Positions 1,649 to 1,687 of a stretch of 64,000 nucleotides of DNA are shown piece after piece. The notes beneath the pieces are model-generated. The model was not told the DNA's origin and did not search any database. It saw nothing but the letters and a program-made list of their open reading frames with translations. Positions within the stretch are counted from its first letter, which is position 1. Each line of letters begins with the position of its first letter. The stretch lies in assembly GCF_056712565.1 (NCBI RefSeq), contig NZ_CM160072.1. One strand, given 5' to 3'. Position numbers and translations under genes: made by a program.

Positions 1649-1687
1649 CCACGGACCGCACTCTTATGTCAAGAGTGCGGTCCGTGG
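1649..1687. repeat. perfect 17/16-bp inverted repeat (ccacggaccgcactctt-atgtca-agagtgcggtccgtgg)
   Basis: Read directly in the sequence; no flanking U-run on either strand, so more likely a protein-binding site or recombination relic than an intrinsic terminator. Confidence 0.6.

Follow-up and report, generated by a model that had tools for sequence, protein, structure and literature searches.

In the 64,000-nt stretch of E. coli DNA analysed here (the window; contig NZ_CM160072.1 of assembly GCF_056712565.1), cobU is separated from a gene for a TonB-dependent receptor by a 1.65-kb gap that carries remnants of a cobalamin-synthesis gene and of IS4, IS66 and IS110 elements. The RefSeq annotation of strain AR_0013 (identical genome) places the cobalamin-synthesis gene remnant and an IS4 fragment straight after cobU, and the K-12 annotation adds the pseudogenes yoeG and yoeH there, within the cryptic prophage CP4-44. 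A perfect palindrome, base-for-base identical in K-12 (2068389–2068429), forms an internal junction of this region, between a truncated IS110 transposase remnant and the upstream DNA of the receptor gene; the CP4-44 boundary given by the K-12 annotation lies about 2.4 kb to the left of it. The features around the palindrome are as follows, in window coordinates.

708–1266, minus strand: N-terminal remnant of an IS66-family transposase with about 115 bp upstream of it (tblastn E 1e-22; blastn 71% identity to L007)
1267–1510, minus strand: remnant of the non-coding 3′ end of an IS110-type element (68% DNA identity to the region downstream of the transposase gene in the reference plasmid L006)
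1511–1678, minus strand: C-terminal remnant of an IS110-family transposase, the K-12 pseudogene yoeH (residues 286–341 of an intact plasmid copy), with two internal stops
1637–1652, minus strand: equivalents of K-12 RNA 3′ termini (PMC10687069, Supplementary Data 2 and 3; coordinates transferred through the K-12 alignment)
1648–1665: left arm of the palindrome, TCCACGGACCGCACTCTT; the minus strand encodes E-C-G-P-W-(K) of the IS110 transposase remnant
1666–1670: loop, ATGTC (minus strand GACAT), homologous to GACCA (Thr/Lys codons) in relatives and now with a TAA stop
1671–1688: right arm of the palindrome, AAGAGTGCGGTCCGTGGA; on the minus strand its inner 8 nt (1671–1678) keep the Ala-Leu-Leu reading of the relatives
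1672–1694: equivalents of a 21–22-bp p19-captured RNase III product (plus strand 1674–1694, minus strand 1692–1672; PMC7373196, Table S3)
1815–1844, minus strand: equivalent of the K-12 yoeH promoter, reading TTATCA...TGTGAT in the window, a weaker match
1894–4040, plus strand: gene for a TonB-dependent receptor, orthologue of K-12 yoeA, thrown out of frame by the loss of 1 bp near 2975

The palindrome and its flanks

An inverted-repeat search returned two arms of 18 nt each (1648–1665 and 1671–1688), 100% complementary and separated by the 5-nt spacer ATGTC. A sequence-only reading of the window had described a 17-bp perfect inverted repeat at this place; that repeat is confirmed, and it extends by one further base pair at either end, to the 18-nt arms. 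The same reading had put it in the intergenic region between cobU and the receptor gene, which holds loosely, but those 1.65 kb are full of pseudogene remnants and the palindrome lies inside one of them. No further copy of an arm occurs in the 64-kb window at up to 3 mismatches, where dinucleotide shuffles lead to an expectation of 0.01 matches. The palindrome is beyond chance.

Folded as RNA, the 101 nt around the palindrome reach −44.3 kcal/mol on the plus strand (z −7.1) and −50.5 kcal/mol on the minus strand (z −7.9), and none of the shuffled 101-nt controls was as stable. The stem is followed by AUACAACC on the plus strand and by AAAACGGA on the minus strand; a T-run is absent from both, and a terminator scan makes no call at the palindrome, which bears out the earlier view that this is not a simple terminator. 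An Rfam scan of window positions 1–6000 found nothing overlapping 1648–1688 at E up to 1; its single weak match, snoRNA-like and away from the palindrome, was taken as chance. Elsewhere in the window, the 14-bp perfect inverted repeat at 48191–48219 (CAATGAGGGTTGCC / GGCAACCCTCATTG) is identical to the hairpin listed upstream of the primary tmaR 3′ terminus in a table of K-12 RNA termini (the TRS study discussed below), and we therefore regard it as an ordinary terminator.

On the receptor side, the gene lacks one C relative to AR_0013 (at about 2975, within 2940–3060), so that a 716-codon frame is divided into open reading frames at 1867–3024 and 3021–4040; since the frame is split in this way, the receptor gene is probably a pseudogene in this strain. 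Just ahead of it, at 1837–1855, stands a perfect 9-1-9 palindrome, AATGATAATAATTATCATT, which resembles the Fur consensus and is a candidate Fur box. K-12 reads AATGAAAAT at the equivalent position, and that single-nucleotide difference makes the −35 element of the K-12 yoeH promoter.

An IS110 remnant and its non-palindromic relatives

The minus strand of 708–1151 corresponds to TnpC residues 1–151 and to K-12 yoeG (tblastn E 1e-22). For the element next to it, the reference was L006 (NZ_CP049202.1), an E. coli IncF plasmid whose IS110-family transposase carries both PF02371 (Transposase_20) and PF01548 (DEDD_Tnp_IS110). Residues 286–338 of this transposase align with the minus strand of window 1678–1520 (tblastn E 2e-8, 51% identity over 53 aa), and residues 1–285 have no tblastn match anywhere in the window. 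The yoeH part thus keeps only the C-terminal tail beyond PF02371, and the catalytic domains are gone. A Pfam scan of the three minus-strand frames over 240–1900 gave no matches, as decay has gone too far in these remnants and the stretch kept in yoeH is not covered by the Pfam domains. At the DNA level, homology to L006 runs collinearly from the non-coding 3′ end (~1267–1510, with its outer boundary at 1267 or ~1296) into the coding remnant, and this non-coding region is also conserved in the copies of Photorhabdus, Serratia and Brenneria. Judged from its sequence, yoeH is an IS110 remnant and non-functional as a gene, and the palindrome is very probably the truncated edge of that remnant. A published account already calls yoeH a non-functional transposase remnant (PMC12363166); in the accessible literature we found no earlier assignment of yoeH to IS110 or of yoeG to IS66.

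Two further observations concern the IS110 subfamily itself. An inverted repeat at 1495–1507 / 1521–1533 (ATGTCAGTATCAG / CTGATACTGATAT) straddles the stop codon of the remnant and is kept in all relatives, including those of Photorhabdus, Serratia and Brenneria; it is probably a functional 3′-end element of the subfamily, either a terminator or part of a guide RNA. In L006 (2488–4105, compared with window 715–1690), an intact IS110-type element stands beside the IS66-type fragment found here, with its junction as in the chromosome; the DNA identity is about 70%. The Photorhabdus and Serratia copies also have the IS66-type flank in common, and this flank, shared by plasmid, chromosome, Photorhabdus and Serratia copies, therefore suggests that the subfamily inserts site-specifically into IS66-family sequence.

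We compared the palindrome with the homologous site in six intact or near-intact relatives, drawn from E. coli, E. fergusonii, E. albertii and Salmonella plasmids and from Brenneria, two Photorhabdus species and Serratia. In coding orientation, the relatives read ...AAGGGCGGCA GCA TTR CTG ACC AAA GAR CCN GGT CCG TGG ATA..., or A-L-L-T-K-E-P-G-P-W-I, and the window reads ...GGTTGTA TCCACGGACC GCA CTC TTG ACA TAA GAG TGC GGT CCG TGG AAA.... Alignment with the transposase coding sequence A-L-L-T-K-E-P-G-P-W takes in the left arm, the loop and, of the right arm, the inner 8 nt, and the outer 10 nt of the left arm (GGTCCGTGGA on the minus strand) are identical in a Salmonella plasmid relative (L015). 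IS110 homology starts exactly at the GCA codon (window 1678), and nothing past the next ten bases aligns. The relatives have no match for those ten bases (1679–1688), the outer part of the right arm. They repeat 1648–1657 exactly in inverted orientation, as the perfect reverse complement of GGTCCGTGGA, which holds the conserved Gly-Pro-Trp codons of the other arm.

The Pro codon CCN, present in 6/6 relatives, is TGC in the window, a change at all three positions that pairs it exactly with GCA, the conserved Ala codon facing it. At every departure from the ancestral sequence, the new bases in the window pair exactly with the other arm: TGC in place of CCN (against GCA), and TCCACGGACC in place of AAGGGCGGCA (against GGTCCGTGGA). 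Complementary pairs at the homologous site number 5–7 of 18 in the relatives, where 4.5 are expected at random, compared with 18 of 18 in the window. Counted outwards from the loop, the relatives have a run of 0–2 pairs; a CTCTT/AAGAG pairing, which might have seeded a strand misalignment, is possible from the Leu-Leu and Lys-Glu codons, given suitable codon choice, and the direct ancestor is not among the sequences compared.

Closer relatives were sought in several ways. The best plasmid hit for a nearer intact IS110 relative had 55% identity (tblastn), a word-indexed protein search gave no candidates, and an exhaustive HMMER search of 1.84 billion representatives gave three matches at E ~1e-4, of which the two homologous ones belong to the same plasmid type. 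The nearest intact relative shares about 53% protein identity over the fragment and about 70% DNA identity. A degenerate-pattern scan of contigs for the IS110 3′ hairpin recovered four distant relatives, all of them non-palindromic. The 23-nt left flank had 0 matches in species-representative contigs, from which it follows that the locus is evidently absent from that set; the set gives no outgroup state. These searches found no genome in the pre-rearrangement state.

Distribution in E. coli and RNA ends at the hairpin

Of 5,426 complete E. coli genomes, about 2,750 carry the palindrome segment, at this one locus, and 2,211 carry it full-length. Counts of two places per genome arise because the palindrome also matches itself on the opposite strand, and with an imperfect variant as query the second place vanishes; no second copies were found in the window, in the 5,426 genomes or in plasmids, except copies of the same locus. 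Over 65 nt there is essentially one polymorphism, G1677A, which turns the C1659–G1677 pair into a mismatch and has an exact match in about 435 of 2,755 records, including the ST131 strain JJ2434. No lineage with a compensating change is visible, and the record counts leave no room for a sizeable one. The palindrome is perfect in about 84% of carriers and in most lineages, among them K-12, O157:H7, O55:H7, O111:H8 and strain MS 200-1. With divergence in E. coli as low as it is, such lasting perfection is no surprise; weak selection may still have contributed.

Insertion sequences have entered the region repeatedly. Matches in hundreds of genomes stop at 1681, within the right arm; in L002, the one such locus examined, the end of an IS3 abuts the right arm, with other DNA in place of the downstream sequence. 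An IS2-associated deletion has removed everything from 1497 on in other genomes. Insertions seen in other genomes between 1590 and 1725 (L002, L003, L008 and L012) comprise IS3 at 1681, IS2 at ~1709, IS5 at ~1722 and IS3-family elements at ~1637 and ~1595, and this stretch of about 130 bp is a local hot zone for IS insertion. The single-nucleotide change is uncompensated and IS breaks fall in and near an arm, so we see no sign of constraint: the population pattern is that of neutral AT-rich debris, unlike that of a constrained site. The sequence-only reading had proposed a search of E. coli genomes, with a lack of positional conservation counting against its claim. The palindrome did prove conserved in position, but solely as a piece of a block passed on by vertical descent at one locus, and that result is silent on function.

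IS2-like sequence is also present farther along the window. A 101-nt imperfect inverted repeat within 11744–12302 (11774–11874 / 11877–11977, 78% complementary) consists of two IS2-like left ends placed head to head, and this sequence also forms the deletion junction at window 1496 in L005-type genomes. The next ~1.4 kb of the window (12302–13742) is missing from L005 between two collinear blocks and is probably an inserted element.

At the RNA level the locus can be followed in K-12, where yoeH (b4641, CP4-44 cryptic prophage) has the identical sequence at the same locus and its 3′ ends, antisense RNA and RNase III products have been published. Shimada et al. report a constitutive sigma-70 promoter for yoeH, TTTTCA-18-TATAAT (PMC3946193); with the promoter placed on the K-12 sequence, its transcripts run into the palindrome after about 120 nt. 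From term-seq and RNAtag-seq data, the TRS study lists minus-strand 3′ termini 'internal' to yoeH at K-12 2068378–2068389, with peaks at 2068382/3, and a second minus-strand cluster at 2068389–2068397, with its peak at 2068393, and prints the palindrome hairpin, at −36.6 kcal/mol, as the upstream structure of those termini (PMC10687069). The peaks at 2068382/3 correspond to window 1641/1642, 6–7 nt past the stem, and that at 2068393 to window 1652, within the 3′ side of the stem. A spacing of 6–7 nt fits a roadblock to 3′ exonucleases and a non-canonical terminator alike.

The opposite strand is also transcribed. Magán et al. describe a 150–200-nt RNA antisense to yoeH that appears in an RNase III (rnc) mutant only and is Rho-terminated at aptamer iRAP#6850 (PMC6847712); it corresponds to the plus strand of the window. 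Among the RNase III products captured with p19 by Huang et al. is the duplex AGUGCGGUCCGUGGAUACAAC / UGUAUCCACGGACCGCACUCU, which ranks at roughly 67 by abundance among 1,225 21-bp duplexes from exponential phase (PMC7373196), and it covers the right arm of the palindrome. The hairpin region of K-12 is transcribed on both strands and shapes RNA ends; overlapping sense and antisense RNAs over the hairpin are there cut by RNase III. The suggestion that the palindrome might be a small structured RNA element, to be checked by looking for a transcript end, is borne out to this extent, by published K-12 3′ ends at the hairpin and RNase III-cut double-stranded RNA over it. The reproducible K-12 3′ end shows that the palindrome is not inert at the RNA level and counts against pure debris. 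The transcription data are all from K-12, and the minus-strand promoter is degraded in the window, so they do not transfer to this strain as expression.

Origin of the palindrome and alternative explanations

Because IS110 homology stops at the arm, the DNA beyond that point is an inverted copy of the G-P-W codons and the relatives are non-palindromic, we read the palindrome as a scar of template switching (snap-back synthesis). We consider it likely that the palindrome is such a scar, without a selected function and with its RNA effects as a by-product. It probably formed together with the deletion of the rest of the element. By comparison with the relatives, the ancestor would have been the non-palindromic GCA YTN CTG ACC AAA GAR CCN GGT CCG TGG ATA, and one or two intrastrand template-switch events during DNA synthesis would have produced the present sequence. 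A quasipalindrome correction may have come first, in which GCA-CTC was copied into GAG-TGC, changing CCN to TGC and leaving a perfect 8-bp repeat. The nascent plus strand could then have folded back on this 8-bp repeat and copied 10 further nucleotides (GGTCCGTGGA) from the G-P-W codons, after which synthesis would have resumed on unrelated DNA upstream of the receptor gene, with loss of the 5′ 85% of the transposase gene. Alternatively, a single complex event may have done both. How many events there were, and in which order, is a reconstruction and not an observation, because no pre-event genome was found, and the true ancestor could already have held part of the inverted repeat, because the closest intact relative is so distant (only ~53% identical in protein and ~70% in DNA). 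Once transcribed, the resulting 18-bp hairpin would act like any very stable stem-loop.

Template-switch mutation at quasipalindromes is well documented in E. coli, where it has been both reviewed and assayed (PMC7202029, PMC6357072). The palindrome resembles such mutations in that one arm was rewritten as the exact complement of the other, with a clustered multi-nucleotide change (CCN to TGC) and a repeat made perfect, and the proposed mechanism is likewise an intrastrand misalignment of the nascent strand in replication. It differs in that the palindrome was also lengthened by 10 nt past any pre-existing repeat and in that the event would have ended at a deletion junction, without return to the original template. 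Unlike the events scored in quasipalindrome reporter assays, this one is deduced from comparative sequence in a pseudogene. In the accessible literature we found no earlier statement of a template-switch origin for the hairpin, and the published accounts of yoeH to which we had access neither name the palindrome nor give an IS110 assignment or an origin of the hairpin.

The main rival holds that the hairpin is a selected RNA 3′-end element: a non-canonical terminator, an insulator or a 3′-end stabiliser for the transcript that diverges from the Fur-regulated receptor gene, with the role of keeping that transcript out of IS debris or of defining an RNA of about 165 nt. The strong K-12 3′ termini 6–7 nt past the stem, seen by both term-seq and RNAtag-seq, speak for it, as do the great stability of the stem, the constitutive sigma-70 promoter mapped upstream in K-12 and a sequence that is perfect in about 84% of carriers. 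Like an intrinsic terminator, the palindrome forms a GC-rich stem-loop with K-12 RNA 3′ ends a few nucleotides downstream; unlike one, it has no U-tract (the tail is AAAACGGAGUUG), its stem of 18–19 bp is much longer than usual, and its 3′ ends could equally be stalled exonucleases. With REP/BIME palindromes it has in common that transcribed non-coding DNA forms a stable hairpin able to stop 3′ exonucleases, but unlike these, and unlike MITEs, it is single-copy, belongs to no dispersed family and derives from the coding DNA of an insertion sequence. Transposase codons and their inverted copy already explain the arms, G1677A goes uncompensated in some 435 records, the matches of hundreds of genomes end within an arm (at an IS3 in the one examined) and others have lost the whole segment, downstream there is only pseudogene debris, and the K-12 promoter is not conserved in the window. 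On this evidence we regard a selected RNA element as unlikely. More doubtful still, and in our view quite improbable, is a variant in which a hairpin born by accident was co-opted and, together with a promoter overlapping the Fur-box region, defines a stable minus-strand RNA of about 165 nt that modulates expression of the adjacent receptor or transcription entering the receptor gene. The minus-strand RNA would then pair with the plus-strand antisense RNA and be processed by RNase III, affecting the iron-regulated TonB-dependent receptor.

A site for a DNA-binding protein, whether the operator of a dimeric regulator or a target of recombination or insertion (att-like, Xer-like or that of a site-specific IS), would be in keeping with the perfect dyad symmetry, with a position some 150–200 bp upstream of an iron-regulated promoter and with the clustering of several IS insertions within about 50 bp. 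To our knowledge, however, operator half-sites are far shorter than perfect 18-bp arms, and this site is single-copy, with no second one in E. coli genomes, plasmids or the window. The nearby insertions belong to IS of different families (1595, 1637, 1681, 1709 and 1722), which fits neutral AT-rich DNA and not one target, and coding DNA accounts for where the sequence came from. We hold this explanation to be very improbable. The operator proposed in the sequence-only reading finds no support in arms that consist of transposase codons and their inverted copy, in which a common single-nucleotide change breaks a pair uncompensated and in and around which IS elements have inserted. Its other proposal, a relic of recombination or integration at an island boundary, survives as a relic of mobile DNA but not as an att or integration site, nor as a boundary, the K-12 CP4-44 edge being ~2.4 kb to the left. 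We also considered the palindrome as a marker of that island boundary and rejected it: besides the distance to the CP4-44 edge, secondary events of IS3, IS2, IS5 and IS2 account for the breaks at 1681, 1709, 1722 and 1496, respectively.

The non-coding ends of IS110-family elements give rise to structured guide RNAs, and the remnant retains the family-conserved hairpin at 1495–1533, so the palindrome might instead be a native IS110 structure, such as part of a bridge or seek RNA or a regulatory hairpin in the transposase mRNA. It lies within the coding region, however, and not in a non-coding end, 0 of 6 relatives have it (5–7 of 18 pairs), and half of one arm falls outside the IS110 homology. 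The alignment of the relatives and their pair counts largely refute this possibility, which we judge extremely improbable.

As a template-switch scar, the palindrome would be a naturally occurring case in which template switching at a deletion junction made an inverted repeat perfect and also lengthened it, and thousands of E. coli genomes have kept the product. The hairpin gives a sequence-level reason for three K-12 observations, the internal yoeH 3′ ends, the RNase III-dependent antisense RNA and the abundant p19 duplex, which we did not find linked to the origin of the hairpin in the accessible literature. The annotation is also refined, with yoeH as an IS110-family remnant and yoeG as an IS66-family remnant. 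For the biology of the cell the consequence is little: one candidate 'regulatory palindrome' is probably explained as debris.
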